64,000 bases of DNA, taken from contig CAXMQZ010000037.1 of assembly GCA_964195975.1 (NCBI GenBank), positions 23,721 to 87,720 on the forward strand, given 5' to 3'. A program made the translations under genes and the position numbers. Below the pieces are notes generated by a model. The model did not search any database, had not been told where the DNA came from, and was given only the letters and a program-made list of their open reading frames with translations. Shown piece after piece: positions 44,048 through 58,591 of this stretch. Each line of letters opens with the position of its first letter. Position 1 is the first letter of the stretch. The DNA comes from an uncultured Polyangiaceae bacterium. GTDB lineage: Bacteria; Acidobacteriota; Thermoanaerobaculia; Multivoradales; JAHEKO01.

Positions 44048-45568
44048 TCACTGCGGTCGAGCCCGCCCCCGTCGGATCCCGACAAGACTTGCCAGGAACC
44101 GCCAGTCTTTTCGTCCAGCGAGCCCGGTCAGGGTCGCCAGGGTTGCGAAAACCGGAAGATAAATCGCGACCTTGATCAGAAGATCGAAGGCGGCCGAGGC
44201 ATCGATCATTCTTGCCGCCAACAGTGCCGGGATGCTGGCCAGAGCGGCAACCGTGAGTGTGCGGCAGTAGAAACCAAAAGGGAACACCTCTCTCAGCGGT
44301 ACGTTTAGAACTTGACTGAGAGCAAGCAGGACATAGAGCCAGGCTATGAACGTTGCGATCAAGGTAGATATGGCGGCACCGACCATTCCCAGCCAGAGGA
44401 CAAAAGGCACACTCAAGATCAGATTTATGACGGCTGATAGTCCTGCCCAAGCCGTAATGACACGAGTCTTGTTGATCGCTTTTAGGACTGCACTGTAGTC
44501 AGCCACTCGCTGAAAGAGGGTCAGAGAATAAATGCTGAACACGATTGCTGCGCCTTCGTACTCCCGTGAAAAGAGCAGCACGATGAGCTCCCGCGAAATC
44601 AGAACGAACATCACCATCAGAGGTAGGACCATCACGCTCACCTTGGTGATCGACTTCGTCCAAAGTGACAAAAGCTCCTCTTTGTTGCCTTCCAAGTAGG
44701 AGGTGACCAAAGGGATCATCATCACCGAGGCGACCGAGGTGGCAATCATCGGTACGAGAGGTATCTCCCAGGCCCCAACTGAGTATTCCGCAAACACGAC
44801 CACCGGGAGCAGAAACATTACGACGTACTTGTCGATGAATTGGTTGATCTTCCAAAGCAGGTCTGCGATTCCAAGGGGCACCGAGTAGCCCAGGACCTGC
44901 CAAACCATATCGCCGGGTAGAGTTGCACCTGTCTTCTCGAGCTCATGCGAGAAACAGATACTGGTCACGATGACCCGAAAGACGCCATAACCAACGAGTG
45001 CATAGCAGACAGTCTGTATTGGCCGACCTAGGGCAGCAGGAACGACCATGGCTGCAAACAACACAAAACTGAACAAAATCGTAACTCGGGCCGCCTGCTT
45101 GGTCTTTCCGAGTGCGATCAGAACGTTTTGGATGGGATAGGTGGGCAGCTCAATGATGACCAGAAAGGCCAACGGGATCATCAGCCCGACAACGTCGTAG
45201 CCCCGTGAGGAAGCGATCAGGCCGATCAGCAAGAGCAGCAGAGCACCACCGACCGCGATGTAGAATAGGATCCTGCTGATCAAGAAAACGAAAGCGCGAT
45301 GTGCATCCTCCTTCACGATCCCGAGGTAGTAGAAGACACTACCGGGTAGACCGAGTTGGGCCAAAGAGGTGACTGCCAAATAAGTCAGGAGAGCAAAGCT
45401 GAGCAGGCCAAAATCTGGTTTGGGCAGCAACCGGGCGAGAATAGCGATCCCAGCGATACGCGTGATCCCACCGACCGCTTTGCTGACAACGAGAATGCTG
45501 GCTTTCGAGGCGAGCGCGGTCTTCTCCGAGGGACCTGAGCTCTGATCAGCTGGGGACGAAGTGGTCAA
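44048..45568 (-). CDS. MOP-superfamily flippase (Wzx/polysaccharide biosynthesis protein family)
   Basis: 506 aa with about 14 TM helices. N-terminus ...ASILVVSKAVGGITRIAGIAILARLL... is typical of the Wzx/PST family. Confidence 0.7.
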   Translation of the reverse strand: MTTSSPADQSSGPSEKTALASKASILVVSKAVGGITRIAGIAILARLLPKPDFGLLSFALLTYLAVTSLAQLGLPGSVFYYLGIVKEDAHRAFVFLISRILFYIAVGGALLLLLIGLIASSRGYDVVGLMIPLAFLVIIELPTYPIQNVLIALGKTKQAARVTILFSFVLFAAMVVPAALGRPIQTVCYALVGYGVFRVIVTSICFSHELEKTGATLPGDMVWQVLGYSVPLGIADLLWKINQFIDKYVVMFLLPVVVFAEYSVGAWEIPLVPMIATSVASVMMIPLVTSYLEGNKEELLSLWTKSITKVSVMVLPLMVMFVLISRELIVLLFSREYEGAAIVFSIYSLTLFQRVADYSAVLKAINKTRVITAWAGLSAVINLILSVPFVLWLGMVGAAISTLIATFIAWLYVLLALSQVLNVPLREVFPFGFYCRTLTVAALASIPALLAARMIDASAAFDLLIKVAIYLPVFATLATLTGLAGRKDWRFLASLVGIRRGRARPQ

Positions 45569-45651: not shown

Positions 45652-46629
45652 CTACCTCGCCTCGAGGGCGTTGCGGTCACAAGTATACCAAGCATGGGTT
45701 CTGCCAAGACCTTCATTCAAATTCACCTGCGCCGTGAAATCCGTGGCCTTTTGTAGCTTCTTCGGGCTGCACACGAACCCCTCCGACAGGATCTCGCGAT
45801 ACTTCGATGGTGTCAGCAACGGGTTGAGACCGAGCTTCGCAGCGGGTACTCCAAGGGCCATGACCAACCAAAGAATGTTTCGAGGCACCCGAGTTGGCCG
45901 GTAGGTTTTATGGCAGGTCCGTGCCAGCACGCTTAGGAAGTCGTCGGCTGTGTGTGGCTCGTTGTGAGCGACAAAAAACACCTCCGACAGGGCCTGTGGG
46001 TGACAACCGACGATCTCGATAGCTCGAACCAGATCGCTGATGTAGAGGAATGAGAACGCCGAGTCAGGCTTGGCCAGCACCGGGAAGAAGCCACGCCAGG
46101 CGCAGCGGAAAAGAGAGAGAAAGTCCCGATCGCCGGGACCGTATACTGCGCTGGGTCGCAGGATCGTATAGGCGAGGCCGTCGATTCTGCGGACTGCCTG
46201 CTCACCGGCCAGCTTACTCTTGCCGTAGTCAGTTATCGGGTCAGGGATATCTGTTTCGGTCCGAGGCTTTTGTAGAGTTCCGGTGCCGGCAGCGGCCTGA
46301 CTCGATACATGGACGAGTCGAGCTCCGCTAGCCCGAGCCGCCAGCGCCACTTGTTCTGCTGCCCCCGCATTTGCGGGCAGATAGTCCTTCAAGCTCGGCG
46401 CACGGGTTTTCCCGGCTAGGTGAATCACCAGGTCGCAGCCATTGAAGGCCACGGTCAGCTCGTTGCGCTGCAGCGGGCTGACGACAGGCTCCGACTCTGC
46501 CGGAGGCGCTCTTGTGGTCTCGGGCCGCAGAATCGCGCGAACCTGCCAACCAGCTCTCGCCAGATGCAGAGAGAGGTGTCGCCCAATAAAGCCGGTCGAG
46601 CCCGTGACAGCAACTTTGCCTTCCATCAC
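45652..46629 (-). CDS. NAD-dependent epimerase/dehydratase-family (extended SDR) protein
   Basis: Rossmann motif VAVTGSTGFIGRHL. 325 aa with a YxxxK region. In this context it is a candidate 3-ketosphinganine-type reductase (inference). Confidence 0.8.
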   Translation of the reverse strand: MMEGKVAVTGSTGFIGRHLSLHLARAGWQVRAILRPETTRAPPAESEPVVSPLQRNELTVAFNGCDLVIHLAGKTRAPSLKDYLPANAGAAEQVALAARASGARLVHVSSQAAAGTGTLQKPRTETDIPDPITDYGKSKLAGEQAVRRIDGLAYTILRPSAVYGPGDRDFLSLFRCAWRGFFPVLAKPDSAFSFLYISDLVRAIEIVGCHPQALSEVFFVAHNEPHTADDFLSVLARTCHKTYRPTRVPRNILWLVMALGVPAAKLGLNPLLTPSKYREILSEGFVCSPKKLQKATDFTAQVNLNEGLGRTHAWYTCDRNALEAR

Positions 46630-46689
46630 AGCTGTTCTTGAAAGATCCGATAGGTTTTGTAGACAATGCCACCCGCGACCCTGATTTCG

Positions 46690-47913
46690 CTAGATGACAC
46701 CCAAGGACTTCCCGACGCGGTCGAAGGCGAACAGGATCTCTTCGATGTCGTCGTGGCTATGTCTGGCAGTAATGCTCGTCCGGACAATACACTCACCGTC
46801 GGGCACGCCTGGTGGTACTGCAGGCGACGTGAAGATCCCCTCGTCCCACAGCGCTTGCCAGAAGCGAAATGTCTTTGATTCCTCGCCTATCAGAACCGGC
46901 ACAATCGGGGTCTCGGAACCGAGGGTGTCGAAACCCAGTTCATGCATGCTTTTGCGGTAGAACTTGACATTCTGCTGTAGCTTTTCGCGTCGCCAGGTCT
47001 CTTTTTGAATTAATTCGAGGGCCTTGGTAGTGGCAGCGATCTGCATTCCGGGGAGCGCAGCCGTAAACATGAAGGGTCGCGCGACGCAGCGAACATAGCC
47101 CACGATATCGGTGTCTCCGCCGATAAACCCTCCTACCGAGCCGAATGCCTTGGAGAAGGTGCCCACGACGAGGTCTACACCCTGTTCCTGACCAAGATGC
47201 TCCGCAGTGCCACGACCTGCCTTGCCAAGGACTCCGGTTCCGTGTGCATCGTCGACTAGAAGGCCAGCATCGTACCGCTCGGCCAGCTCTACGAGTCGAT
47301 CCAACGGCGCGATGTGACCGCTCATGGAGAAGACACCATCGGTGACGATGAGCCGCCCACCGGGGCGATCGGAGTCCTTCTCGAGGAGGTGCGCGAGCTG
47401 GTCTATGTCGTTGTGTCGATATTTTCGGATCTTCGAGAATGAGAGTCTCGAGCCGTCGTAAAGACTGGCATGATTCTCACGATCAAAGTAGAGAATATCC
47501 TTTCGACCTCCGAGGGCGCTCAAGGCGCTCAGGCAGCCTTGAAATCCGGTGCTGAAGGTGAGAACACTCTCGACCTGAAGAAACTCGGCCAACTGTTCTT
47601 CTAGACGGTCATGCAACACCAGGGTTCCGGTGAGAAACCGTGAGCCGGTACAGCTCGTGCCATAGCGATCGAGAGCGCGGCGTGCGGCGGCCTTGACTCT
47701 CTCATCGCAAGCCAGGCCAAGATAGTCGTTGGAGCATGCAACAAGCTTCTCCTCTCCTTCGACCATCCATCGAACACCAGCATTGGTTTCGACTTGGCGA
47801 AAGTAGGGTTTGAAACCGGCCGCGGCAAGGTCTGCCAAGCGGACGTACTGCTGTGCTTTCTCGAACACGGCCTTGGGCCGTCTCGAGTCGTCGACTGTCT
47901 CAGGAATCACCAT
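46690..47913 (-). CDS. Alpha-oxoamine synthase family PLP enzyme, serine-palmitoyltransferase-like
   Basis: 407 aa. The PLP-lysine region GTFSKAFGSVGGFIGG is FSK...GGF as in SPT, unlike GTLGKA of BioF/Kbl. Confidence 0.7.
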   Translation of the reverse strand: MVIPETVDDSRRPKAVFEKAQQYVRLADLAAAGFKPYFRQVETNAGVRWMVEGEEKLVACSNDYLGLACDERVKAAARRALDRYGTSCTGSRFLTGTLVLHDRLEEQLAEFLQVESVLTFSTGFQGCLSALSALGGRKDILYFDRENHASLYDGSRLSFSKIRKYRHNDIDQLAHLLEKDSDRPGGRLIVTDGVFSMSGHIAPLDRLVELAERYDAGLLVDDAHGTGVLGKAGRGTAEHLGQEQGVDLVVGTFSKAFGSVGGFIGGDTDIVGYVRCVARPFMFTAALPGMQIAATTKALELIQKETWRREKLQQNVKFYRKSMHELGFDTLGSETPIVPVLIGEESKTFRFWQALWDEGIFTSPAVPPGVPDGECIVRTSITARHSHDDIEEILFAFDRVGKSLGVI

Positions 47914-47961: not shown

Positions 47962-48585
47962 CTAGCTGTCAGCCTCCAGTGCGTCGATTCGATTCCTGAG
48001 ACGCTCGATGACAGTTTCTACCGACGAGACTCTCAACATTCTCGCAAATTGTTTTCGATAATTCTTAATCGTATCCACTCCATCCACAACGTAGTTGGTG
48101 ATCACCCAACTATCTTCGGATGGAATCAAATAGTAGTCGAGCTCAATGTCATCCTCACCATAGCGCGCGATCGTTCGCACAGTTGCTGTCTCGCCATCGA
48201 TATCCTCGCCTACGTACTCAAAACTATCGGCGCGATACCTTCCAAGTTTTCTTACCGACGAGACTCGAAGAAGCTCCCTGAAGACCTCTTTGAAGGTCTC
48301 GCAATCATCGCCAGCGGCAGGATCACAGAGACCGTCGATCGCCTCATTCGCAATGGTCGAAAAAGAGGTCATCTGATCCATAACATCGAAAACCTGTTCG
48401 TTCACGTCCGAGTCGGCTCTGCCGGAGTCTTTCGAATAGAGATCCAGGATCTCATCGTTCGACTCTCGAATTACCTGTAATGGTCCTTCTTGGGCAACAG
48501 CCGGAGAAATTGAGACCAACAGGAGAGTTACCGTGGCGGCATACCGCAACAGATCTACAATTTTAGCTGATTTCGACCGTTTCAT
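47962..48585 (-). CDS. Secreted hypothetical protein, possibly MlaC/Ttg2D-like lipid-binding periplasmic protein
   Basis: Signal peptide MKRSKSAKIVDLLRYAATVTLLLVSISPAVAQ. About 200 aa of mixed alpha/beta composition. Context only; no diagnostic motif. Confidence 0.35.
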   Translation of the reverse strand: MKRSKSAKIVDLLRYAATVTLLLVSISPAVAQEGPLQVIRESNDEILDLYSKDSGRADSDVNEQVFDVMDQMTSFSTIANEAIDGLCDPAAGDDCETFKEVFRELLRVSSVRKLGRYRADSFEYVGEDIDGETATVRTIARYGEDDIELDYYLIPSEDSWVITNYVVDGVDTIKNYRKQFARMLRVSSVETVIERLRNRIDALEADS

Positions 48586-49981
48586 GATCAATCCACTCCA
48601 GGTAGAGCTCAATGCGCCCCAATGTCAACGCTATGCGGGCCAGGGCGAGCTGATACTGAGCTTCTTGCTCGATGACTATCGCACCGAGCTCGTAGTATTG
48701 GCCGTAGGCGTCTACCAGCCGGTCGACGCTACCAAGACCGAGGTCCCAATTATCACCGCTTAGTCTCAGCCAGCGTTTTGCCGCCTTCTTGGATCTCTTG
48801 GCAGCATCGAGTAAATCTGAGAGAGCCTTTGCTTCCGCATAGGCTCGGGTGACCTCGATAATCAGTCGATCTTCGAGAACCGACAGTTGCTCGATGGCTT
48901 CCTGCCGCTCGACAGATGATTGGCTGATGGCCAGTCGGTGATCGGCAAACTTGAGGTTCCACCGAAGACCCAAGAAACCACCGATTGTCCGCAGGTTGAA
49001 TGGATCCAGAATGAAAGGATTTCTGATATCGGTTCGGTTTGGAGCGCGAGCGTAGGCCCCACCCAAAGCGAGAAAGATGTCGGGCCACCTGGACGCCTCG
49101 GCTAGCGCCAATTTACTATCGAGTGCGCCGAGGCCGGCACGGGCTTGTTGGATCGGCGGACTCGAATCCATTGCCATTGTGATTAGTGAGTCCAACATGT
49201 CCTCGTCTGGTAGCCCCGGTGTCCCCGCAGGAGCGAAGCTATCCGAATCGAGCTTGCCCCAGTCGAGCAGGACCTCCAACGATGCACCCGCAATCTCCTG
49301 ATTCTTGACACTCTGTCTGCCCGCGGCTCTAATCCCGTACTCGAAGCTCTGCACTTCGAATAGGCGTGTGTCATCTACGTCGGAGTCGGGGTCATTCGCA
49401 GCTCGCTCGACCTCCTCGAGCAATCTCTCGTAGTCCTTTTGCAAATCCTCGGCCAGATTGACACCACGATTTGCCGATTCAAACCCCCAAAACGCCTGCA
49501 CGACTTGGAATCCGAGCTTCGCAGCTGTGAAATCTCTACCGAACTCCCGTACGAGAACACCCTGCTCGGCCGCGGCTCGAGCGGAGGCGATCTTTCCAAA
49601 AGTCGTAAGCGGCTGGGCGATCCTAAGGTCGAATCGATAAAATACCCCCAGATTGTTGAGGTCTTCGTTGGAGTCCGGTGACTCGAAGATGTTTCCTTTT
49701 GCTTGCGGGACCAAACCCGTCTTGAAGTCGAGATCGATACTGGGTAGTTTTGTGTTCTTGACTTCCTTGACGTCGAGCTCGGCACGCTGCACTTTGTAGC
49801 GCTCGGCCTGAACGACTGGATGGGTCGCAAGGGCGTGTTCGACGGCTTCGCGTAGGGTATGGCGTGCGGAGTCGTCAACCGCGTCGGTCGTCTGGCTGTG
49901 GGTCACTTCGGGGATTAAAAGGCACAAGAACAGTACTGTCCACGGTAGCGACCGCGGGCTGTTTGACAATGAATTGTGCAC
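48563..49981 (-). CDS. TolC-family outer-membrane efflux channel
   Basis: 472 aa. Signal peptide plus an internally duplicated helical/beta structure. The N-terminal ...LREAVEHALATHPVVQAERYKVQRAELDVKEVK is the typical OEP start. Confidence 0.75.
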   Translation of the reverse strand: MHNSLSNSPRSLPWTVLFLCLLIPEVTHSQTTDAVDDSARHTLREAVEHALATHPVVQAERYKVQRAELDVKEVKNTKLPSIDLDFKTGLVPQAKGNIFESPDSNEDLNNLGVFYRFDLRIAQPLTTFGKIASARAAAEQGVLVREFGRDFTAAKLGFQVVQAFWGFESANRGVNLAEDLQKDYERLLEEVERAANDPDSDVDDTRLFEVQSFEYGIRAAGRQSVKNQEIAGASLEVLLDWGKLDSDSFAPAGTPGLPDEDMLDSLITMAMDSSPPIQQARAGLGALDSKLALAEASRWPDIFLALGGAYARAPNRTDIRNPFILDPFNLRTIGGFLGLRWNLKFADHRLAISQSSVERQEAIEQLSVLEDRLIIEVTRAYAEAKALSDLLDAAKRSKKAAKRWLRLSGDNWDLGLGSVDRLVDAYGQYYELGAIVIEQEAQYQLALARIALTLGRIELYLEWIDHETVEIS

Positions 49982-50080: not shown

Positions 50081-50764
50081 TCACCGTGTGGTCCGTACTC
50101 TTCGTTCCCTGGAGATACGGGTTCCAAACGCCATGTCCCAGATGACGCTGCTGACACCGAACCCGCGGTCGGGATCATGGTAATGGTGCACCACATGGTG
50201 TTCTTGGAGACGCTTCCAGATAGGGTGGCGAAGCGGCGCATGATAAACGGCGTAATGGATCATGTCGTAGGCTAGATAGCCGACCAGAAACCCGGCTGAT
50301 GCAGCATAAAAGACACCACCATTTCCGAGGGTCAGCCGAAATAGCAGGTAGAAAGGAATCACCAGAATCACTGCCAGGAGCGGTGGCATCACAAGCCGTT
50401 TCTGATCGTTTGGGTAGTCGTGGTGAATACCGTGTAGCAGGAAGTGCCACCTTTTCCCCAGATCGCTCGAGGGTTCGTAGTGAAATACGAACCGGTGAAG
50501 CAAGTATTCGGACAAGGTCCAAAAGAAGACGCCACCCGTAAAGAAGAGAAGCAGCTGCGCGGGCTGGTTGCCTGAAAATTGTGCGGCTTTATACAGACAA
50601 AAGCCGACTATCGGAACCCAAAAAATCAGAGGGTAGGACCAGTGGACGTATGACTGAGCGTCGAGCGTTGGGTTTTTGAAGAGTCGGATCGACTCCTTCG
50701 CGTTTGAAACATACATTTTGGACACTTGGATCTCACCTCCGCGGAGACCGGCGCATCCCTCCAC
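50081..50764 (-). CDS. Fatty-acid hydroxylase superfamily (sterol desaturase/FA2H-like di-iron membrane enzyme)
   Basis: Four His boxes: HRFVFHY, HGIHHDYP, HYAVYH, HHVVHHYH. Confidence 0.8.
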   Translation of the reverse strand: MEGCAGLRGGEIQVSKMYVSNAKESIRLFKNPTLDAQSYVHWSYPLIFWVPIVGFCLYKAAQFSGNQPAQLLLFFTGGVFFWTLSEYLLHRFVFHYEPSSDLGKRWHFLLHGIHHDYPNDQKRLVMPPLLAVILVIPFYLLFRLTLGNGGVFYAASAGFLVGYLAYDMIHYAVYHAPLRHPIWKRLQEHHVVHHYHDPDRGFGVSSVIWDMAFGTRISRERRVRTTR

Positions 50765-50841
50765 AAACGCGCCCTACTTTGCCGTCTTATGCCTGGACAA
50801 AACGGCTGACAACGTCGAAGTATACTGTACTCGATGAGAGG

Positions 50842-51813
50842 CGAACCGTGTTAGAGATCCTGACCCGGCTCAAAGCGGACCTGCAGCGTGTAGGGAAGCC
50901 TCGAGAGGTTGAAGGTGTTCTGGATCGCTTTCTCATCCGACCTTGCGGGTATGTAATAGCGCGATGGCTGACGCCGAGTTGGGTAAGCCCCAATTTTCTG
51001 TCGTTGTTGGCCTTAGCCTTCGGATGGCTCACCGCTTACTGTCTCTTTGAAACGGCCAGATTGGGAAACCTTCCCGTCTACTCCGGGCTTGCCGCTCTGT
51101 CGATGGTACTTCACTCTGCTTTCGACAGCGCCGACGGTCAGCTGGCCCGTGCTAGAGGGACGACCAGTGAGTTTGGCCGCATACTCGATGGGATATGTGA
51201 CTATCTCAGTTTTGCAGCTATCTATCTGGCTATCGGTCTCGGTCTGGGAGTCAGAGCAGGAACGGGAATGACTCCCTTCGTTCTTTCAGCGGTGGCGGCG
51301 GGTCTATCGCATGGCCTTCAGTGCGCTGTGGTCGAGAATCAACGCAATCTGTACCGACACTACGTACATGGCGCCGAGCTTCCCTTCGACGCTTCAGAGC
51401 CCGAACCAGGTGCGCAGATCGAGAGCGAGTTGGGCTTCCTACAACTCATACACGGGGCCTACTCCAAGCTTCAGATGGTTTTTGGGGGCTCGAGTCTTCG
51501 CTTGTGGCGCAAGGTCGACGGCTGGCAGCAGAGCCATTCTAGCGACTCGGATCGAATCGTTGGCCTGATAGTTGCTAATAACTTGAAGCGATTGCCTTTG
51601 TGGGCCCTGCTGGCGCCAAATTCTCACAAAGTAGGGATGATCGTCGGAGCTTTTATTCCAGTAGGAAGCAGTACGGTTTTCGGAGAACTGGGTCTGTTTT
51701 GGTACTTTCTCTATGTCGTTGTAGGTCTGAATCTACTGATGATCGTAATGATTTTCACCCAATCATTGGTAGATCGCCGAACCTGGGTTGCGCTAATGGA
51801 AGATTCCCACTGA
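50842..51813 (+). CDS. CDP-alcohol phosphatidyltransferase family protein; start uncertain (ORF opens at 50704, overlapping the hydroxylase; GTG near 50842 with GAGAGG upstream)
   Basis: Signature D-x2-DG-x2-AR-x8-G-x3-D-x3-D as DSADGQLARARGTTSEFGRILDGICD. Confidence 0.75.
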   Translation, partial: RTVLEILTRLKADLQRVGKPREVEGVLDRFLIRPCGYVIARWLTPSWVSPNFLSLLALAFGWLTAYCLFETARLGNLPVYSGLAALSMVLHSAFDSADGQLARARGTTSEFGRILDGICDYLSFAAIYLAIGLGLGVRAGTGMTPFVLSAVAAGLSHGLQCAVVENQRNLYRHYVHGAELPFDASEPEPGAQIESELGFLQLIHGAYSKLQMVFGGSSLRLWRKVDGWQQSHSSDSDRIVGLIVANNLKRLPLWALLAPNSHKVGMIVGAFIPVGSSTVFGELGLFWYFLYVVVGLNLLMIVMIFTQSLVDRRTWVALMEDSH

Positions 51814-51814
51814 A

Positions 51815-53152
51815 GTGCTCGGGCGCGATGGCTCGACTAGCCGGAACAAGTCTCGGACGATGAGATCAATCGTCACTGTTACAACTCCCCGTGCCTTCGA
51901 CGAGCTCGGCGGACTCATGTTGTGGCAACGTGTGATCAGGACTCTGGGACATCTAGGCTCAGAGTCGGTTCAACTGATCATCGTTCCCGAATTGTCTGAG
52001 TTGGGATTGAAAGAGAGTGTGTGGCAAGAGTCGTATCTCGATGATGGCGATATCCAGGCCGTTGCGGGGAAGTCTCTGACTTCGGTCGATCTCCTCGAGA
52101 TGGCCGGGGAGGGCGAGGGGCCGATTCTTGTCGTGCCCGGAGAATCCGTTTTTGACCCGCGGATCCTCGAATTCTGTTTGAACCAGACCGCTCCGGTTGC
52201 CTGCGTCGACCGAGATCCGCCGGCAGAGTGGCGAGCACTGGTGGAAAACGCCCCACGGGTCGGCGATGCTCGATTCTGTGGTCCCGTGGTAGTAACAGAT
52301 GAATGGCTGAATCGGTATCCAGGGGACTTTCCTGACGCTGTCGCAAAGACTATTGCGCATGGATCACTGCCGACAGTTGACGTCGACTCCTTGCCGACAA
52401 GAGCAGGGAATCTACGACGAGATGTCAGACCCTTTTGGTTCCCAGCGCCAGATTCCAAAGACAGAAGCTTGGCAAGGCGTCTGCTGTTGTCTTCGACTCA
52501 GAAGGGCTCACTCGACCTTCCTGCAATGGTTCATGCTCCGATTGAGAAGCTCGTGGCCTGGAGCCTGGCGGGGACCAAGATCACTCCCAACATGGTCACT
52601 GTTCTGACTACTCTGGTTGCCTGGGTTGCCACCGTCATGTTTATCCGGGGCCATCTTGTCACCGGTCTCGTACTTGCTCTGATGGTTGGAGTATTGGATG
52701 GTGTTGACGGCAAACTGGCGCGTCTACGATTCGAGTTCTCCAGATTCGGCGAGCTCGAGCACTGGCTGGATTTTCTGTACGAATGGTCGTGGTGGGTCGC
52801 GCTGGCCTACTACTTCTCGAGCTCTGGTCTGCTCCCACAAGCCTGGCGCGTTCTTGGACTGCTAGCCTTCTTCGAAGTTGTCGATGGCTTGGCCAAGGCG
52901 ATCAGTATTGTCTCGTTTGGGCGTCTCATCGACGAAATATCTCCGTTTGAAAGGATGGTGCGAATCTTTGGTGGTAGGCGTAACGTATATATTTGGCTCA
53001 TGGTTCTCGGAACGGTCTTGGGAAAGCCTGCAGCGGCCTTTGAGATTTTGCCAATCTGGCAGGGAGCTACCGCGATTCTTCACTGGATAAGACTCCCCTG
53101 GCTTTTTGCCAATTCTCGTAAAGAGCAGCGGATAGGTGGAATCACCGGATGA
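51815..53152 (+). CDS. Two-domain protein: N-terminal ~230-aa soluble domain (possibly degenerate nucleotidyltransferase-like) fused to a CDP-alcohol phosphatidyltransferase membrane domain
   Basis: C-terminal domain has LDGVDGKLARLRFEFSRFGELEHWLD (CDP-OH_P_transf-like). The N-terminal domain lacks a clear GxGTR motif. Confidence 0.6.
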   Translation: MLGRDGSTSRNKSRTMRSIVTVTTPRAFDELGGLMLWQRVIRTLGHLGSESVQLIIVPELSELGLKESVWQESYLDDGDIQAVAGKSLTSVDLLEMAGEGEGPILVVPGESVFDPRILEFCLNQTAPVACVDRDPPAEWRALVENAPRVGDARFCGPVVVTDEWLNRYPGDFPDAVAKTIAHGSLPTVDVDSLPTRAGNLRRDVRPFWFPAPDSKDRSLARRLLLSSTQKGSLDLPAMVHAPIEKLVAWSLAGTKITPNMVTVLTTLVAWVATVMFIRGHLVTGLVLALMVGVLDGVDGKLARLRFEFSRFGELEHWLDFLYEWSWWVALAYYFSSSGLLPQAWRVLGLLAFFEVVDGLAKAISIVSFGRLIDEISPFERMVRIFGGRRNVYIWLMVLGTVLGKPAAAFEILPIWQGATAILHWIRLPWLFANSRKEQRIGGITG

Positions 53153-55563
53153 TGGACCGGTTGTGGCGGATTGTCTCGCGGGTCTCAGCAGAACATACCT
53201 GGTGGGTGCTGGGCATGACCCTGTTGGTCAGTATTCCTGCCTTCTTGTCGGTAAAGAATATCGGGCTCGACACCAACCTGAAGCGACTTCTTCCTGAGCA
53301 TGCGCCGTCGGTCCGGTGGAGCCGCGAGCTCGAGGAGTCGGTCGGAGACGGGGGGTACTTCGCGATCCTAATAGAGGGAGATGATCGTCAAGTATTGATC
53401 ACTACGATCGAAGAAATAGCCGACAGGGTAGGGGATCTCCCCTCGATTCAATCAGTTGATTATCGAAACCCCAAAGAGTTTGTCGACGAGTATCGCTACA
53501 CCCTGCTACCCAACTCACTTCTCGAGGAGCTCAGAGACGAGATCGAGCGGTGGGAGATCGAAGTCAATCCGTTTCTACTCGACCTGGATGCCCCCGAGAC
53601 CTCCGATACCCAAGCTGATGACGACGAGGAGGATGCCGATCGCTTGGAGAAATTCCTGACTCACTACGTGCATATGGACGAATATCAGGCCGACTCGGAG
53701 GGTCGTATTTTTGGCATGATCATTAGACCCAAGGAAGGTATCTCGAATCTAGCCAGCCTGAGAGAGCTGTACGGTGAGCTTCAGAGGATCACTGCCGAAT
53801 CGGTCGAGGGGAAGGGGTTGTGGTGGGGCATCGGAGGTAATCTTCGTACGCGGGTCGACGAGTTCGATCTGATCGTCTCGGATCTAGGAAGGGCCGGATG
53901 GGTCTCGGCAATAGCGATTCTGCTGACTTTGGCGATCAGCTTTCGGTCCTTCAAAGTCCTGCCAGTTATCCTCTACCCTTTGGCGATGGGTCTTCTGTGG
54001 TCGTTCTGCTTTGTCCCGACTTTGGTGGGAGATCTGAATACTATTACCGCGTTTCTCTTGTTGGTGTTGTTTGGCATGGGCGTGGACTATGCAATCCACC
54101 TCGTGAGCCGATTTGAGGTCGAATTGACCTCGCGGTCTCCCGAAGAGGCGCTAGAGGAGACCCTTCGATCGACAGGTAGATCGGTAGCGACCTCCGGTGC
54201 GACTACGGCCATAGCTCTACTGATTCTGTCGGTGTCCGATTTTAGGGGTTTTTCGGACTTTGGCATCATCGGCGGAACCTCGATCGGAGTCATCACATTG
54301 GCAATGCTTTTTGTATGGCCGGCCTGTGCCGTCGCCGGCGTCAAGCTCGGACTCGTCTCGGCGGGAAAGCCCTCGACCGAGGGATGGGCTCTACCGCTCC
54401 CAGGGCCTATCGTAATAGTTGGGGTGTTAACGCTTGTTGGCCTATCGATATTCGCCGCTCGGGAGTACCTTCAGTTCGACTACGACTTCACCAAATTAAG
54501 CGCCACTATCCCGGGCAAGGAAGAGATCAACGAGAAACAGAGAAAGGTCTATCCTGCCACCTCTGCACCTGCGGCTCTCTATGTAGCCAGAGACCTCGAA
54601 GCTCTCGATCAGATTATGGCTTTGCTGGAGAAAAAGCGCGACGAAGCAGCCGATTCCCCGACTATTGGCACGATCAACAGCATCAGAAATTTCGCTCCGA
54701 GCCGTTCGCAGTTCGACCGTCGACTCGAGACTATCGCCGAGATGCGGGATTCACTCCAAGGTCGGTGGGTAAGAAAGATCGACGATCCTGATCGAAAGGA
54801 GATCATTGAAGACTTTCTGGCATTCGAGCCACCGAACAACCCCCCACGCATCGACGAGGTTCCAGTATCGATCAGCCGAGAGCTGATGGCTCGCGATGGC
54901 TCTGGAGCGTTGGTGACCGTCGACACCGATGGGCGCAGTCGGGATGGCAGGATGGCCATGGCGTTTACCAGGGACCTTTATGAGATCGACCTTCCTGAGG
55001 GCGTGCGGGGACCCACAGGTGAAAAACTCGTACTTGCGGAGATACTTTTCCTGGTCACCGGCGAGAGTGCCTGGATTGTGGCTCTCACTTTTGGAGGGAT
55101 TTTTATCCTGGTCCTCCTGGATCGGAGATCGGTCATCCAGACAGTCTGGGTCTTGGTGCCGCTGGCGGCTGGCATTCTTCTGACTCTGGGAGCCATGGTA
55201 GTACTCGGCTGGAAGCTGAATTTCTTCAATCTGGTCGTACTGCCAACGATGTTAGGAGTTGGGGTGGATCATGGTGTGCACTACTACCGGCGATGGCGGG
55301 AGGTCGACGGCGACACCCGTTCGACCCACTACGAGTTGTTTGGACCCATCACGATCGCGTCGGTAACCACGATGATGGGTTATCTCGGCATGGTGCTCGC
55401 ACACCACCCAGGCTTGCGCTCGATCGGACTGCTCGCGCTTGTCGGATTGACGGCTACCTGGTTTACAGCTCTGGTGCTGCTACCGGGTCTTCTTTGCTGG
55501 CAGAGGGGTTGTATGCCAGGTCTTCTTCGATTGCAGAAGAGTCCTAGGACTGAAAGTTCGTAA
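53149..55563 (+). CDS. MMPL/RND-superfamily exporter (HpnN/MmpL-like lipid transporter)
   Basis: 804 aa with two 6-TM bundles, each preceded by a large periplasmic domain. 4-nt overlap with the upstream gene. Confidence 0.8.
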   Translation: MMDRLWRIVSRVSAEHTWWVLGMTLLVSIPAFLSVKNIGLDTNLKRLLPEHAPSVRWSRELEESVGDGGYFAILIEGDDRQVLITTIEEIADRVGDLPSIQSVDYRNPKEFVDEYRYTLLPNSLLEELRDEIERWEIEVNPFLLDLDAPETSDTQADDDEEDADRLEKFLTHYVHMDEYQADSEGRIFGMIIRPKEGISNLASLRELYGELQRITAESVEGKGLWWGIGGNLRTRVDEFDLIVSDLGRAGWVSAIAILLTLAISFRSFKVLPVILYPLAMGLLWSFCFVPTLVGDLNTITAFLLLVLFGMGVDYAIHLVSRFEVELTSRSPEEALEETLRSTGRSVATSGATTAIALLILSVSDFRGFSDFGIIGGTSIGVITLAMLFVWPACAVAGVKLGLVSAGKPSTEGWALPLPGPIVIVGVLTLVGLSIFAAREYLQFDYDFTKLSATIPGKEEINEKQRKVYPATSAPAALYVARDLEALDQIMALLEKKRDEAADSPTIGTINSIRNFAPSRSQFDRRLETIAEMRDSLQGRWVRKIDDPDRKEIIEDFLAFEPPNNPPRIDEVPVSISRELMARDGSGALVTVDTDGRSRDGRMAMAFTRDLYEIDLPEGVRGPTGEKLVLAEILFLVTGESAWIVALTFGGIFILVLLDRRSVIQTVWVLVPLAAGILLTLGAMVVLGWKLNFFNLVVLPTMLGVGVDHGVHYYRRWREVDGDTRSTHYELFGPITIASVTTMMGYLGMVLAHHPGLRSIGLLALVGLTATWFTALVLLPGLLCWQRGCMPGLLRLQKSPRTESS

Positions 55564-55603: not shown

Positions 55604-56554
55604 CTATTCGGATTCTTGCCGTCGAAAGGAATCCGTAGCTGATGCCCTCCGCACGCACGAGATCGTGCACCGGTCTTCGCAGCCCTTTCGAGTATAGAAC
55701 TCTCTCAGGCGATGATCTTTGGTGTACTCGCTCAACGGGATACCAGGATCATTTCGTCGCTGACTGCAGTATGAGACGATCCCGTCCTCATCTACATAGA
55801 GATACCGGGCGCCAGCGCGGCATTTCCAGGGAGCCGAACCGTCTCTAATGATCTTCGACTCCCAGCCTTCACCAACGTGGTGGAGAAGGCTCTTACGGCT
55901 TCGCCCATGAATCTCTTGATAGAAATCCGCCAGACTGTCGCCGAGAAGACCGGGGTCGAGTTGGCCCTCCTGGTCATGCATCAGGCCGACGGTCATATAA
56001 AAGCCCATTTCTTGAACACCCTGCACGACCTCACGTGTTTCCTCGAGGTTGCTGGATCCGAGCACGGCGTTGACGGTCACCTTGAACTTGGCATGATCGC
56101 GCAGCAGGGCCAGACGCTCCTTTAGACTCGACCAGGATTTTTCGGAAACTTCGTTGGGCTCCAGGTTGTCGATTGAGACCTGTAGGATCGTGAGCCCGGA
56201 GTCGTTGAGTCGCTCGATCCAGCGTGAAGTCAAGGTGTATCCGTTCGTGATCGACGTACAAACCATCCCGCGCGATACTGCGTAGCGGATCAATTCGTCC
56301 AACATTGGATGGAGAAGAGGCTCACCGCCCGTCAGGGTCAATACAACTGTGCCTGCATCGGCAATTTGATCGATGCGCTCGATCAAGTCTCTGGTGTCGA
56401 CTGGCGGAGAAACGTGGTCAAACTCGTTACAGTACCCGCAGGCAAGATTGCAGCGACGGGTGACAACTAGTTGGACAAGGACAGGTTTTGAAGGCGAAAG
56501 TATTGCCGCGCCCGCTCGGGCCAGGGAGCGAATAGGTGGGTTGGGTAGAAGCAT
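55604..56554 (-). CDS. Radical SAM enzyme with C-terminal Cys-rich (twitch/SPASM-like) region, function unknown
   Basis: CNLACGYC (CxxxCxxC) and GGEPLL. C-terminal cysteines ...WKCRAGARY...SYCSQ...KGCEDRCTISC. Confidence 0.75.
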   Translation of the reverse strand: MLLPNPPIRSLARAGAAILSPSKPVLVQLVVTRRCNLACGYCNEFDHVSPPVDTRDLIERIDQIADAGTVVLTLTGGEPLLHPMLDELIRYAVSRGMVCTSITNGYTLTSRWIERLNDSGLTILQVSIDNLEPNEVSEKSWSSLKERLALLRDHAKFKVTVNAVLGSSNLEETREVVQGVQEMGFYMTVGLMHDQEGQLDPGLLGDSLADFYQEIHGRSRKSLLHHVGEGWESKIIRDGSAPWKCRAGARYLYVDEDGIVSYCSQRRNDPGIPLSEYTKDHRLREFYTRKGCEDRCTISCVRRASATDSFRRQESE

Positions 56555-56569: not shown

Positions 56570-57343
56570 CTAGTCTGAGGTCGATCGAACGGATAGCTCG
56601 GTCAACAGATCGCGGGCGTCGGATGTTGCCAGGCGAAGATCGTCCGGTGTGTCGATATCGATCCACATGCGTGGTCCAGGGAGAGTCGCAGCCAGGACCA
56701 ATCCCTTGGAAGCGCAGTGCCGAACACCGTCGGAGAGTGAGAACCGGGAATTTGCCTGTGCGGTCTCGAGACCCTCTGCAAGAGTTTTGGTGCAATAGAA
56801 AAGCCCGGAATCACCGGCATCCCACGACGTAAGCTCTTTACCGATGGCGACTACGTGACCGGCTTCGGTTTGTACTTTTGTCAGATCATCGAGATCGACG
56901 ATCGATCCCGGAAAGGGATCCACGGCCAGAGTGATCTTGTCTGCGTCCATGTCAAAATCGATCAGGTACCTGATCATCTGGGGAGAGAACAAGTGGTCAG
57001 CCATAGAAAGTAGGAACGGTCGCGGCGAGAAGGATCGAGCGAGGGCCAAAGCCGTGACACCGTTTCCCTTCTCCCAACCCTGGACGGTCACGAACTCGAT
57101 ATCGATCCCAAGTCGTTCAGCAATATCCAAGTAGTTATTACGCACCATGTCGGCTTTGAACCCGAGCCCGACTCGGAACTCGCGCACTCCGGCGGCGTAG
57201 AATGCATTCAGACTCCACTCCGCAATGGTTGCCCCATGAAGTGGCATGCATGGCTTCGGTAGTTTCTCGTCCACTCCTCGCAGCCGGGTGCCTTCACCGG
57301 CAGCGAGAATGGAGACGGGTAGGGGTAGAGCAGTCTCCATCAC
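56570..57343 (-). CDS. Nucleotidyltransferase (sugar/alcohol-phosphate cytidylyl-/guanylyltransferase fold); candidate CTP:inositol-1-phosphate cytidylyltransferase
   Basis: ILAAGEGTRL (GxGTRL) motif near the N-terminus. 257 aa. Adjacent to inositol-3-phosphate synthase. Confidence 0.65.
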   Translation of the reverse strand: MMETALPLPVSILAAGEGTRLRGVDEKLPKPCMPLHGATIAEWSLNAFYAAGVREFRVGLGFKADMVRNNYLDIAERLGIDIEFVTVQGWEKGNGVTALALARSFSPRPFLLSMADHLFSPQMIRYLIDFDMDADKITLAVDPFPGSIVDLDDLTKVQTEAGHVVAIGKELTSWDAGDSGLFYCTKTLAEGLETAQANSRFSLSDGVRHCASKGLVLAATLPGPRMWIDIDTPDDLRLATSDARDLLTELSVRSTSD

Positions 57344-57445: not shown

Positions 57446-58591
57446 CTAGGACTCTTTGACGTCTACGAGAGGTGTGGCCTGCACTGCTGTTTCGATGACA
57501 TCATCCGCCAGAAAATCCTCCAGAGCTCGTTTTGCTTCAGAGTCTGAGATTTGCTGGGGCGGATGCTTCATCGTGTAAGCAGACGCTGCGATGAGAGGAC
57601 CCGATATCCCTCTGTCCAGAGCCACCTTGGCGCAGCGGATAGCGTCGACTACCACACCCGCTGAGTTAGGTGAGTCTTCGACACTGAGCCTGGCCTCCAA
57701 GTGCATTGGAACGCCGCCAAATCCTCTTCCCTCGACCCGGATAAAACAGACTTTGTTGTCCTTTTGCCAGGGAACATAGTCCGATGGGCCGATGTGGATT
57801 TGATCGTCGGGGAGCCGGATTGCAAGCTCCGCCTGAACCGACTCGGTCTTGGATTCCTTCTTGCTTCGCAACCGAGTCCTCTCGAGCATATTGAGGAAGT
57901 CGGTGTTGCCGCCGGTGTTGAGCTGATAGGTACGATCGATCCGCACTCCTCGATCTCCCATCATCTTCGCCAGGGTACGATGCATGATAGTCGCACCGAA
58001 CTGGCTCTTGATGTCATCACCAACGATTGGAATACCCTTTTCGCTAAACCGGGCGGCGTACTCTGGATCCGAGGCGATAAAGACCGGAACACAGTTGACC
58101 ATGGCAACGCCGGCCTCCAGACATGCTTCGGCATAGGCCCGAACGGCCTGCTCTGAGCCCACCGGCAAATACGAGATGAGAACCTCGGCGCCTGACTCCT
58201 TCAGGGCTTTGGCTACATCTACGGGTTCGGCATCTGCCACCCGAAAGGCCTGGTTCTCCGGATAGTTCGCCATGTGGTCTGCGACGCCATCCAAGACTGG
58301 GCCCATCTGGACCATGATTTCCTGCGAATTGACGGATGGCTCGAAGACCGTCGTGCAATTCGGCTCAGCGAATACGGCTTGATTGATGGATCGACCAACC
58401 TTTCTTCGATCAACATCGAAGGCAGCAACAGGTCGAATACTCCCGACGCTGTAGGAACCAATTACTTCACGCATCAGTCCGATCGGTTCTTCGTTGTTGT
58501 TCTTTTTGTAGTGGTCGATTCCCTGCAGGAGGGCGCTAGCGCAGTTTCCAACACCAGCGACTGCAATACGTACGTCGTTCTTCATCTTCAA
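57446..58591 (-). CDS. ino1: myo-Inositol-1-phosphate (inositol-3-phosphate) synthase, archaeal/bacterial type
   Basis: NAD-binding IAVAGVGNCASALLQG, ...NGSPQNTF-like core ...YQLNTGGNTDFLNML.... 381 aa. Confidence 0.85.
   Translation of the reverse strand: MKMKNDVRIAVAGVGNCASALLQGIDHYKKNNNEEPIGLMREVIGSYSVGSIRPVAAFDVDRRKVGRSINQAVFAEPNCTTVFEPSVNSQEIMVQMGPVLDGVADHMANYPENQAFRVADAEPVDVAKALKESGAEVLISYLPVGSEQAVRAYAEACLEAGVAMVNCVPVFIASDPEYAARFSEKGIPIVGDDIKSQFGATIMHRTLAKMMGDRGVRIDRTYQLNTGGNTDFLNMLERTRLRSKKESKTESVQAELAIRLPDDQIHIGPSDYVPWQKDNKVCFIRVEGRGFGGVPMHLEARLSVEDSPNSAGVVVDAIRCAKVALDRGISGPLIAASAYTMKHPPQQISDSEAKRALEDFLADDVIETAVQATPLVDVKES

Follow-up and report, generated by a model that had tools for sequence, protein, structure and literature searches.

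[quoted passage not shown] This proposal is made because members of its family in several phyla adjoin, or are fused with, enzymes that build the head groups of inositol phospholipids. The enzyme very likely belongs to the bacterial inositol-phospholipid pathway, and whether it acts on the head group rather than on the tail is close to an even call. The reading we favor is tailoring of the inositol-phosphate head group by a radical SAM enzyme of the twitch type, and we tentatively put its probability at about 0.4.

The radical SAM gene in a probable inositol-lipid and export gene cluster

The gene and its neighbors in the window are as follows.

44048..45568, minus strand: Wzx/MurJ-type flippase (Polysacc_synt), 506 aa (Pfam Polysacc_synt_3, Polysacc_synt)
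45652..46629, minus strand: NAD-dependent epimerase/dehydratase-family SDR, 325 aa (Pfam Epimerase)
46690..47913, minus strand: alpha-oxoamine synthase, serine palmitoyltransferase-like, 407 aa (Pfam Aminotran_1_2)
47962..48612, minus strand: MlaC-like periplasmic lipid-binding protein, 216 aa (Pfam MlaC, E 4.5e-22)
48563..49981, minus strand: TolC-like outer membrane efflux protein, 472 aa (Pfam OEP, E 6.9e-33)
50081..50764, minus strand: fatty acid hydroxylase family protein, 227 aa (Pfam FA_hydroxylase, E 2.4e-18)
50704..51813, plus strand: CDP-alcohol phosphotransferase "type A", 369 aa (Pfam CDP-OH_P_transf)
51815..53152, plus strand: CDP-alcohol phosphotransferase "type B", 445 aa (CDP-OH_P_transf at residues 256-361)
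53149..55563, plus strand: MMPL/HpnN-like RND lipid exporter, 804 aa (Pfam MMPL)
55604..56554, minus strand: radical SAM enzyme, 316 aa, ATG start (ORF list, Pfam PF04055)
56570..57343, minus strand: nucleotidyltransferase, likely CTP:inositol-1-phosphate cytidylyltransferase, 257 aa (Pfam NTP_transf_3, NTP_transferase)
57446..58591, minus strand: myo-inositol-1-phosphate synthase (MIPS), 381 aa (Pfam Inos-1-P_synth, E 6.9e-36)

The initial annotation had described a 316-residue radical SAM reading frame with the motif CNLACGYC, located between the MMPL exporter and the nucleotidyltransferase and MIPS genes. The ORF list, the translation and the match to PF04055 Radical_SAM (residues 30-176, E 2e-20, 74.1 bits against a Pfam cutoff of 29.5) confirm the former, and the ORF positions together with the Pfam matches the latter. 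The start codon is taken to be right, since homologues are collinear from residue 1 (MLLP/MFLP...). The MMPL exporter gene, whose product matches the HpnN-like NCBIfam model at E 1.4e-66, under the cutoff, is convergent to the radical SAM gene with 40 nt between them. On the minus strand, the NTP transferase gene lies 15 nt upstream of the radical SAM gene and the MIPS gene another 102 nt upstream, the radical SAM gene being the last of a MIPS-nucleotidyltransferase-radical SAM array. Between the three genes, the minus strand shows no terminator-like site. The order NTP transferase-radical SAM is kept in the related loci L086 and L087 (88% and 73% identity), and the order MIPS-NTP-flippase-radical SAM in L176 (67% identity). 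We infer that the three genes are co-transcribed. An Rfam scan of the window for riboswitches and rRNA found nothing. The closest named relatives of the MIPS belong to Acidobacteriota (74%), and those of the radical SAM enzyme to Vicinamibacterales or Myxococcota (about 64%).

The genes for MIPS, NTP transferase and CDP-alcohol phosphotransferase lie together within 8 kb, and the same trio is found in L167, L176 and Acetobacteraceae loci, which implies a Kennedy-like route through CDP-inositol. In such a route, MIPS (441.8 bits and E 1.8e-132 against TIGR03450, cutoff 638) would form L-myo-inositol-1-phosphate, the IPCT-like nucleotidyltransferase would convert it to CDP-inositol, and the CDP-alcohol phosphotransferases would transfer phosphoinositol to ceramide or diacylglycerol as the lipid alcohol. 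Outward movement of the product could then fall to the flippase and to the MMPL, MlaC and TolC-like proteins, and the radical SAM enzyme would be a dedicated accessory enzyme of the pathway. MIPS and NTP transferase are also known as fusion proteins of 627 aa. The type A protein is a distant member of a neighbor cluster (c2) that directly adjoins the radical SAM gene in 21 of 24 cases, and is 27% identical to the type A protein of L167. The type B protein is extended at its N-terminus by about 210 aa and is related to u388 of L004 and to a 376-aa protein of L001; its best NCBIfam matches are AIP synthase, DIPPS and PIP synthase, all under cutoff. The flippase is 27% identical to that of L167 (E 6.5e-38) and 52-53% identical to those of L040 and L044.

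The lipid acceptor is uncertain, since homologues of ceramide synthase, ACP and acyl-ACP synthetase were not found in the window; nor were those of PAP2 and GDPD. The alpha-oxoamine synthase matches serine palmitoyltransferase best in NCBIfam (411.9 bits against 640), with BioF and Kbl close behind, so that its assignment as a serine palmitoyltransferase is tentative. The SDR, possibly a ketosphinganine reductase, is 41% identical to the SDR of the sphingolipid-type clusters in L001 and L081.

Two known systems resemble this gene set. In Bacteroides vulgatus and Prevotella, a predicted CDP-inositol "alternative" inositol-lipid cluster likewise groups MIPS, NTP transferase and CDP-alcohol phosphotransferase, and its HAD hydrolase is the proposed PI-to-IPC transferase (Heaver et al. 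2022, PMC9246714). That cluster has no radical SAM gene, whereas the window has one and no HAD hydrolase matched among the scanned ORFs between 44 and 62 kb. The window differs further in phylum, in its two CDP-OH paralogues and in its MMPL, MlaC, OEP and flippase export genes. The second system is the IPCT/DIPPS of hyperthermophiles, which serves di-myo-inositol phosphate synthesis. The NTP transferase, whose best NCBIfam match is the N-terminal half of this model, and the two CDP-OH proteins all match it (E 7.6e-27, 5.1e-12 and 4.8e-06), and type B, as in the fused enzyme, has an extra domain before its CDP-OH domain. However, all scores are far under the cutoff of 580, the genes of the window are separate, and their lipid-export context points to a lipid rather than to a compatible solute. 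We know of no radical SAM enzyme in DIP synthesis.

Motifs, fold and relation to characterized radical SAM enzymes

Three elements of the radical SAM enzyme carry its classification.

56429..56452, minus strand: CX3CX2C (C35, C39, C42) within CNLACGYC, residues 35-42 (read from the sequence)
56318..56329, minus strand: GGEP (G76-G77-E78-P79), the usual SAM-binding "GGE" element, invariant in alignments
55655..55822, minus strand: twitch-like C-terminal cysteine region, a C245-X12-G258-X4-C263 hairpin followed by C292-X3-C296-X3-C300

Both hallmarks of the superfamily are present, namely CX3CX2C together with PF04055, and GGE together with a partial (beta/alpha)6 barrel. The CX3CX2C motif, which is invariant in an alignment of 167 family members, is predicted to bind the SAM-cleaving [4Fe-4S] cluster. 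The AF2 model (pLDDT 85.7) has six beta/alpha units forming the partial barrel, then a hairpin and helices, with the hairpin strands at residues 251-254 and 259-261 according to DSSP. The protein is soluble (GRAVY -0.35, with no hydrophobic segment), and residues invariant in the 167-member alignment are polar or charged (R33, K139, H193, R246, R250, R267, K290 and several Asp/Glu).

No variation is seen at C245, C263, C292, C296 and C300 among 24 diverse homologues, and their conservation is at least 98% among the 167 family members. The first four are also kept in a GT2-fused sister subfamily, from which C300 is absent, and are common to every subfamily. The C245-C263 segment has the CX9-15GX4C pattern of twitch/SPASM hairpins and is matched to the twitch hairpin of SkfB in a HMMER alignment. 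The seven-cysteine SPASM motif with CX2CX5CX3C is absent: there are five C-terminal cysteines, the second block being CX3CX3C. Five cysteines, and four in the sister subfamily, fit one auxiliary cluster in a twitch arrangement. Judging from these motifs, the enzyme in all likelihood holds one auxiliary Fe-S cluster in a twitch-like C-terminal hairpin-helix domain, and the auxiliary site that the initial annotation had suggested from its C-terminal cysteines gains from their invariance and from the alignment with SkfB. The twitch hairpin is there as a motif; neither Pfam SPASM (PF13186) nor a twitch model matched any of 24 members even at E <= 1, the Pfam matches of the family being the generic Radical_SAM and Fer4_12 only, and no NCBIfam equivalog could be assigned.

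The function had initially been left unassigned, and this stands. NCBIfam gives 70 matches, of which PqqE and then MoaA are the best; none is near its cutoff and the alignments are confined to the N-terminal core. The rejected identities include BlsE (54.5 bits against 400) and HpnH (50.7 against 225). Orthology to MoaA or PqqE, which would have spoken against a new function, was checked and is negative in view of scores far below the NCBIfam cutoffs: 71.6 bits against 381.35 for PqqE (TIGR02109, residues 22-180 only), and 61.8 against 284 and 51.7 against 325 for MoaA (TIGR02666 and TIGR02668, residues 28-183 only). AhbD (63.4 against 500) and NirJ (55.4 against 515) were rejected likewise. 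It is therefore hardly credible that a housekeeping cofactor enzyme of the MoaA, PqqE or AhbD/NirJ kind is located here by chance, even though these are the generic top NCBIfam matches and the JGI name is "MoaA/NifB/PqqE/SkfB family". The alignments end near residue 185, there are no moa, pqq or heme genes nearby (pqq genes were absent among the scanned neighboring ORFs), and the family forms a tight, sharply bounded group of its own with about 130 clusters at 50% identity. Moreover, CX3CX3C does not match what we take to be the C-terminal three-cysteine auxiliary-cluster motif of MoaA.

No close sequence relative was found among solved structures, and fold matches peak at a TM of about 0.6 (Foldseek). 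The best structure is BlsE (7vob; TM 0.62, sequence E 1.9e-13). The nearest relatives by sequence or fold, BlsE, viperins, AbmM, DesII, MoaA, BtrN and SpeY, act on nucleotides or sugars. Among them, BlsE, viperin/pVip, AbmM, DesII and MoaA are the best sequence and structure matches, and their substrates are phosphorylated or nucleotide-linked and polar, which fits the Arg/Lys-rich invariant set of the window enzyme. They differ from it in that identity is 15-21%, the alignment ends after the core, the C-terminal domain has its own motif, and NCBIfam scores are put at 4-8 fold below cutoffs.

The parallel with BtrN drawn in the initial annotation extends to the predicted layout and is weak in similarity. 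BtrN and SpeY, twitch dehydrogenases acting on aminocyclitols, share this layout in being small and soluble, with a single auxiliary-cluster domain at the C-terminus on a Cys-hairpin-Cys element, and their substrates are cyclitols. However, BtrN ranks only 47th in the fold search (TM 0.42, E 2.4e-7) with no sequence match at E <= 1e-3, SpeY reaches a TM of 0.44, and their setting is aminoglycoside rather than lipid synthesis. The C245-C263 spacing of 17 residues equals what we take to be the C169-C187 spacing of BtrN, and the second cysteine pair is CX3C(X3C) as compared with, presumably, CX2C in BtrN.

Viperin structures occupy ranks 2-10 of the fold search, PADLOC pVip gives the best single family matches (75 bits, E 1.5e-21), the NCBIfam prokaryotic viperin model matches at E 2.4e-18, and a kinase-like APH gene adjoins the radical SAM gene in L169. 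The enzyme might accordingly modify a nucleotide, for instance to a dehydrated CTP or CDP analogue, and have its role in regulation or phage defense instead of in lipids. We regard this as very improbable. The pVip match covers only profile positions 2-153 of 257, the viperin model (NF038283) gives 66.3 bits against a cutoff of 180, and both were rejected as identities. The lipid context and the synteny, stable within lineages, are unlike mobile defense islands, and no homologue was found in a plasmid collection. In addition, the five invariant auxiliary-type cysteines of the family are lacking in viperins, to our knowledge of their structures.

Similarity in sequence and fold to SkfB, PqqE, SuiB, CteB and anSME, together with the hairpin shared with SkfB, could also suggest a maturase of the SPASM/twitch type, with a peptide or a neighboring protein as its substrate. 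There is, however, no conserved small ORF, sulfatase or RiPP-type partner among the conserved neighbor clusters, and no RRE/PqqD-like domain was detected. The conserved neighbors come from different families (CDP-OH, GT4, MMPL), which is a poor fit to a single protein substrate, and we give a maturase very little chance.

Gene context across the family and the choice of substrate

The family is highly conserved; identity between phyla is about 60%, and eight cysteines are invariant. Members abound in acidobacterial subdivisions 1, 3, 4 and 6, where the gene is a core, stand-alone gene, and are also found in Acetobacteraceae, Sphingomonas, Nitrospirillum and Polyangiales. Gene context was surveyed in 170 related loci, 43 of which make up the clade of the window (clade I). 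A CDP-OH transferase gene adjoins the radical SAM gene (within 350 nt) in 24 of the 43, and a GT4 gene in six further ones; several clade I loci, L169 and L170 among them, have housekeeping neighbors only. The best matches of the neighboring CDP-OH transferases are all inositol-phosphate enzymes (AIP synthase, PIP synthase, DIPPS), below cutoffs. Recurrent neighbors in at least four separate lineages are genes for MIPS, an IPCT-like nucleotidyltransferase, a GT4, an MMPL protein and a Wzx-like flippase. A MIPS gene is found no more than 10 kb from the radical SAM gene in L086, L166, L176, L167, L168, L165, Nitrospirillum, five Acetobacteraceae loci and the window itself, and MMPL genes recur in L003, L006, L040, L044, L086 and L167. 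In L167, the order GT-flippase-MIPS-GT4-MMPL-NTP-CDP-OH is divergent from the radical SAM gene, and in L176 the radical SAM gene is followed by one for an FkbM-type methyltransferase. Overall, the recurrent partners are head-group enzymes: CDP-OH and GT4 proteins, GT2 proteins and methyltransferases. The link to inositol, claimed initially for the window, is more than a local coincidence: it recurs in the window's clade, L167/L168, Acetobacteraceae, Nitrospirillum and a small deep clade. The initial reading is supported in each part that was checked.

One member is a DedA/VTT-radical SAM fusion with all invariant residues kept. It adjoins a CDP-OH transferase and a PAP2_3 protein that matches nothing in the PDB other than yeast AUR1 IPC synthase (E 4.7e-17), which suggests that the enzyme accompanies inositol lipids of another route as well, membrane-tethered in that case.

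About 108 of the 170 loci, with all invariant residues kept, have no inositol, CDP-OH or GT neighbor within 10 kb, and the reaction may therefore not be inositol-specific. These loci are mostly acidobacterial (Acidobacteriaceae/Terriglobia, Bryobacterales, Pyrinomonadales), plus Kibdelosporangium. The neighbors in clade III (ACT-domain, adenosine deaminase, racemase, CPBP, permease, UvrD, DinB-like, Yip1, EamA and deformylase proteins) were rejected as a functional clue, being uninformative.

The enzyme could instead tailor a sugar, acting generally on head groups in the assembly of membrane glycolipids or lipid-linked glycans, with glycosyltransferases as its partners and inositol genes as one of several contexts. 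GT4 is the immediate neighbor in 12 of 19 proteobacterial loci as well as in the six clade I loci, L168 contains a radical SAM-GT4 operon, GT2-radical SAM fusions occur in the sister subfamily, and Wzx-type flippases recur. The Kibdelosporangium locus, comprising GT4, a PlsC-type acyltransferase, the radical SAM enzyme and a CFA-synthase-like protein, has no inositol genes, and clade III has no inositol context. We nevertheless consider sugar tailoring unlikely. The cluster of the window has no GT4, the nearest lying at 15.8-16.5 kb, about 28 kb beyond the cluster edge; the commonest immediate neighbor in the window's clade is an inositol-phosphate-type CDP-OH transferase; and MIPS, which is rare in bacteria, recurs near the radical SAM gene in those four or more lineages. 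As for the GT2-fused proteins, they lack the family-invariant H193, S264, Q265, R267 and C300, and may therefore catalyze a different reaction.

Action on the hydrophobic part of the lipid, such as tail-to-tail C-C coupling or ether/C-C formation in the manner of archaeal Tes or bacterial Mss, is improbable in our view. Acidobacterial subdivisions 1, 3, 4 and 6, in which the family abounds, are reported to make iso-diabolic acid without mss (PMC13159169), and the enzyme would then perhaps be the missing iso-diabolic acid synthase. Remote homology to Tes can be detected (NF045702, E 9.8e-12; 7tol, E 1e-7), one member is fused to a membrane domain, and the neighbors include lipid exporters. On the other hand, Tes was rejected as an identity at 44.2 bits against 450 with the core alone covered, the enzyme is a small soluble protein whose invariant residues are polar and rich in Arg and Lys, and the neighbors work on head groups rather than on fatty acids. 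Members are also known from Acetobacteraceae, Sphingomonas, Nitrospirillum and Polyangiales, for which we know of no reports of membrane-spanning lipids. That the family is the long-sought oxygen-tolerant acidobacterial enzyme that joins two fatty-acid tails to form iso-diabolic acid, from which the brGDGT palaeoclimate biomarkers derive, has only a slim chance; if it were true, the inositol-lipid clusters in other phyla would be explained by the coupling of lipids with their head group already in place.

Candidate chemistry on the inositol head group

The preference for the head group over the tail follows from the solubility of the protein, its polar invariant residues, its nucleotide- and sugar-acting relatives and its head-group partner enzymes. 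In tailoring the inositol-phosphate head group, the enzyme would most likely take a hydrogen atom from a ring carbon of inositol phosphate, before or after attachment to the lipid. The outcome could be oxidation to an inosose, or a 1,2-diol dehydration of the viperin/AprD4 type; any one reaction type, taken singly, is doubtful. A conceptual precedent for a radical SAM enzyme and a glycosyltransferase acting on the polar head of a lipid is HpnI-HpnK-HpnJ, which remodels a lipid-bound sugar in the synthesis of the hopanoid cyclitol ether, and adjacency or fusion of GT and radical SAM genes is seen here too. HpnJ, however, is of the B12-binding-domain type with about 470 aa and is unrelated to the window enzyme beyond the core, and hopanoid genes are absent from the window.

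We know of no modified-inositol bacterial lipid that would require a radical SAM step. In the open-access literature, no paper was found that links radical SAM with CDP-inositol, or with MIPS, sphingolipid or gene-cluster terms, and a search on "PF14378" found nothing. The mapping of inositol lipids and sphingolipids in bacteria has only recently begun, and the CDP-inositol "alternative" route is still a prediction. The family accompanies inositol head-group enzymes in both the CDP-inositol and the AUR1-like routes, and such company, whichever the route, implies a missing chemical step. Soil and marine Myxococcota, Acidobacteriota, Alpha- and Gammaproteobacteria probably contain a modified inositol lipid that has yet to be described. 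If so, twitch radical SAM enzymes would gain a new reaction or, at the least, a new class of substrate. Cultured carriers of the gene exist in Acidisoma (A. cellulosilyticum), Gluconacetobacter (G. tumulicola LMG 27725), Nitrospirillum (N. amazonense) and Kibdelosporangium (K. aridum).

The radical SAM gene and its cluster

The initial annotation had described a minus-strand radical SAM gene, encoding a 316-aa protein with the motif CNLACGYC, between the MMPL exporter gene and the nucleotidyltransferase and myo-inositol-1-phosphate synthase (MIPS) genes. The ORF list and quoted sequence match this description, and the coordinates confirm the placement:

55604-56554, minus strand: radical SAM enzyme, 316 aa, ATG start
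56570-57343, minus strand: nucleotidyltransferase, 257 aa, 15 nt upstream of the radical SAM gene
57446-58591, minus strand: MIPS, 102 nt upstream of the nucleotidyltransferase gene
53149-55563, plus strand: MMPL exporter, convergent with the radical SAM gene, 40 nt between their ends
50704-51813 and 51815-53152, plus strand: two CDP-alcohol phosphotransferase (CDP-OH) paralogues, side by side
47962-49981, minus strand: MlaC and TolC-like OEP, in the same cluster as the MMPL exporter
45652-47913, minus strand: serine-palmitoyltransferase (SPT)-like enzyme and SDR

The start codon is fixed, since homologues align from the first residues. A single minus-strand unit with MIPS had also been suggested; a minus-strand scan inside the three-gene array found no terminator-like site, so that co-transcription is likely.

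The wider cluster (44-58.6 kb) further encodes a Wzx-type flippase and an FA hydroxylase. The best NCBIfam matches of the nucleotidyltransferase and both CDP-OH proteins are inositol-phosphate enzymes (IPCT/DIPPS, archaetidylinositol-phosphate synthase and PIP synthase), every score being below cutoff. The 445-aa CDP-OH protein (51815-53152) carries a ~210-aa N-terminal extension ahead of its CDP-OH domain, a layout recalling fused IPCT/DIPPS. The SPT-like protein is an alpha-oxoamine synthase that reaches none of the cutoffs for SPT, BioF and Kbl, and no homologue of ceramide synthase, ACP or acyl-ACP synthetase was found anywhere in the 64-kb window; the lipid base could therefore be ceramide or diacylglycerol. 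MlaC, the TolC-like OEP and MMPL look like a dedicated route taking the lipid to the outer membrane. The window's arrangement agrees with the CDP-inositol route that PMC9246714 predicts in certain Bacteroidetes, but has the radical SAM and export genes in place of the HAD hydrolase of that route.

Three further features were observed. A sodium:solute symporter family protein (41924-44011, minus strand, 695 aa) directly adjoins the flippase and might import inositol or another solute. On the MIPS strand and 151 nt upstream of it, 58742-61729 (minus) encodes a 995-aa protein with response-regulator receiver and PPDK_N (PEP-utilising, ATP-grasp) domains, 86% conserved at the equal position in the related locus L086; is it a cluster regulator or a phosphotransferase? 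The annotated starts of the divergent FA hydroxylase (GTG) and first CDP-OH (TTG) ORFs overlap by 61 nt (50704-50764), so both genes probably begin at more internal codons.

Protein anatomy and comparison with known families

Pfam Radical_SAM spans residues 30-176 (E 2e-20), with CNLACGYC at residues 35-42. The AlphaFold2 model, for which 24 homologues served as input, has high confidence (pLDDT 85.7, pTM 0.88): six beta/alpha units come first, then helices, a beta-hairpin and finally two helices. At a threshold of ≥98% in 167 family members, the conserved residues are the cluster cysteines C35, C39 and C42, G76-P79, five further cysteines (C245, C263, C292, C296, C300) and a strikingly polar set (R33, E44, D46, N104, Q125, S127, D129, K139, H193, R246, R250, Y251, Y253, E256, S264, Q265, R267, K290, D308). 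C245-X12-G-X4-C263 is the hairpin motif common to twitch and SPASM domains, and the HMMER alignment pairs it with the corresponding SkfB hairpin. Only C245, C263, C292 and C296 are retained in a GT2-fused sister subfamily, which points to a single predicted auxiliary Fe-S cluster with four cysteines in the twitch arrangement. The C-terminal cysteines behind the auxiliary site proposed initially hold up, the cluster itself being a prediction. Pfam SPASM matched no member examined, so twitch membership is read from motif and fold; a twitch-type radical SAM enzyme is the best-supported assignment.

A Foldseek search of the PDB placed BlsE first (TM 0.62), then viperins, SkfB, PqqE, SuiB, DesII, AbmM, MoaA and anSME, with SpeY and BtrN (TM 0.42) lower down; searching every PDB sequence with a profile returned BlsE (E 1.9e-13), PqqE, SkfB, viperin-like enzymes, MoaA and AbmM. 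NCBIfam contributed 70 matching models, each covering only about residues 22-190 and each far under cutoff: PqqE (71.6 vs 381), viperin (66.3 vs 180), AhbD (63.4 vs 500), MoaA (61.8 vs 284), BlsE (54.5 vs 400), HpnH (50.7 vs 225) and Tes (44.2 vs 450). PADLOC pVip models gave 75 bits, again on the core only. A viperin-like nucleotide role is very improbable, as is a peptide or protein maturase. Clear MoaA/PqqE orthology, chosen beforehand as the finding that would speak against a pathway enzyme, was not found, and a housekeeping cofactor enzyme is scarcely credible. None of the curated models, solved structures and literature searched covers this family, and "radical SAM" together with "CDP-inositol" was not found in the open-access literature.

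Relatives, gene neighbours and fusions

Only 130 of 1.84 billion cluster representatives match at E ≤ 1e-30, marking a sharp family boundary. At least 523 stretches in one-genome-per-species data encode a relative, in Polyangiales and other Myxococcota, Acidobacteriota (Terriglobia, Bryobacterales, Pyrinomonadales, Vicinamibacterales), Acetobacteraceae, Nitrospirillum, Sphingomonas, gammaproteobacterial MAGs and Kibdelosporangium; Vicinamibacterales, Myxococcota and Eiseniibacteriota are among the named relatives with ~60-64% identity. Neighbours of 170 loci were mapped by tblastn and de novo clustering, and a neighbour-joining tree gave three large clades and a small one. A sister family (P0195, P0231, P0247, P0265; ~30-32% identity) keeps the eight cysteines. 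In L003 the CDP-OH gene is also flanked by a second, paralogous radical SAM gene (345 aa, 29% identical; pair at 8008-9045 and 10001-10975, both plus).

In clade I, that of the window (≥58% identity), a CDP-OH gene, often divergently transcribed, lies ≤350 nt away in 24 of 43 loci, and GT4 is adjacent in 6 more; some loci have neutral contexts. In clade II (Alpha- and Gammaproteobacteria), GT4 is directly upstream in 12 of 19 loci, an SPT-like gene is nearby in three, and Acetobacteraceae have a MIPS-NTP transferase-CDP-OH operon 2.5-4.5 kb off. General sugar tailoring together with glycosyltransferases is unlikely, though the least so of the alternatives. In the small deep clade, L165 has MIPS and CDP-OH. 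Among other individual loci, L167 reads GT-flippase-MIPS (long type)-GT4-MMPL-NTP transferase-CDP-OH with a divergent radical SAM gene, and L176 MIPS-NTP transferase-flippase-radical SAM-FkbM methyltransferase. The CDP-OH proteins encoded beside the radical SAM gene in many loci fall into two subfamilies, type A (~320-346 aa) and type B, which carries an additional N-terminal domain; each type is represented once in the window, whose 445-aa protein groups with type B proteins flanking radical SAM genes elsewhere (L004, 388 aa; L001, 376 aa).

L001 (Vicinamibacterales) has radical SAM, CDP-OH and NTP transferase genes beside ACP, AMP-binding, SPT-like, GNAT-like and SDR genes, a group resembling the bacterial ceramide gene set. 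Between the SPT-like and SDR genes of this sphingolipid-type cluster, 3401-4798 (minus) encodes a 465-aa B12-binding radical SAM protein that may be a lipid methylase.

The CDP-inositol step is supported by natural 627-aa MIPS-NTP transferase fusions (P0311, P0351, P0369, P0389, P0391, P0397), which speak for inositol phosphate being channelled straight into CDP-inositol. The radical SAM protein is itself found fused:

L174, 5999-9764: DedA/VTT-radical SAM fusion (P0137) beside AUR1-like PAP2_3 and CDP-OH
L175, 2609-6390: methyltransferase-radical SAM fusion (P0153) after a PAP2_3-methyltransferase fusion
L171, 8001-9785: GT2-radical SAM fusion, of the sister subfamily, beside 990-aa B12-binding radical SAM and SPASM radical SAM proteins

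P0137 keeps every invariant residue and is tethered to the membrane. Its gene is divergently adjacent to those for CDP-OH and PAP2_3, the latter matching only yeast IPC synthase AUR1 in the PDB (E 4.7e-17); the radical SAM protein thus accompanies inositol-phospholipid synthesis via CDP-inositol or AUR1-type transfer.

The association with inositol lipids is strong, spans several phyla and is testable in cultured strains. The best-supported reading is a dedicated accessory of an inositol-phospholipid pathway, a new functional variant among twitch radical SAM enzymes on a pathway itself only predicted. We propose that its most probable target is the polar inositol-phosphate head group, not the acyl chains, as suggested by a protein that is soluble (no hydrophobic segment; GRAVY -0.35), its charged invariant residues, nucleotide- and sugar-handling relatives and head-group-enzyme partners. 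Oxidation, 1,2-diol dehydration and epimerisation are candidate reactions, among which the sequence does not choose.

Loci without inositol genes

As evidence against the inositol link, clade III (~108 loci) conserves all invariant residues among unrelated housekeeping neighbours (≤10 kb) in Acidobacteriaceae and other Terriglobia, Bryobacterales, Pyrinomonadales and Kibdelosporangium. Acidobacteria subdivisions 1, 3, 4 and 6 are reported to produce iso-diabolic acid without mss (PMC13159169), and the family's acidobacterial spread (loci L017-L085) matches these producers; tail chemistry of the Tes or Mss kind is nonetheless improbable, given the features favouring head-group action. Kibdelosporangium is a partial exception to the housekeeping contexts: its radical SAM gene is surrounded by genes for a GT4, a PlsC-type acyltransferase and a CFA-synthase-like protein. 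In L054 (Kibdelosporangium aridum, 6069-12246) the gene lies between the acyltransferase and the cyclopropane-fatty-acid-synthase-like methyltransferase genes, and the nearby GT4 resembles GlcNAc-phosphatidylglycerol synthase, a lipid context without inositol genes.
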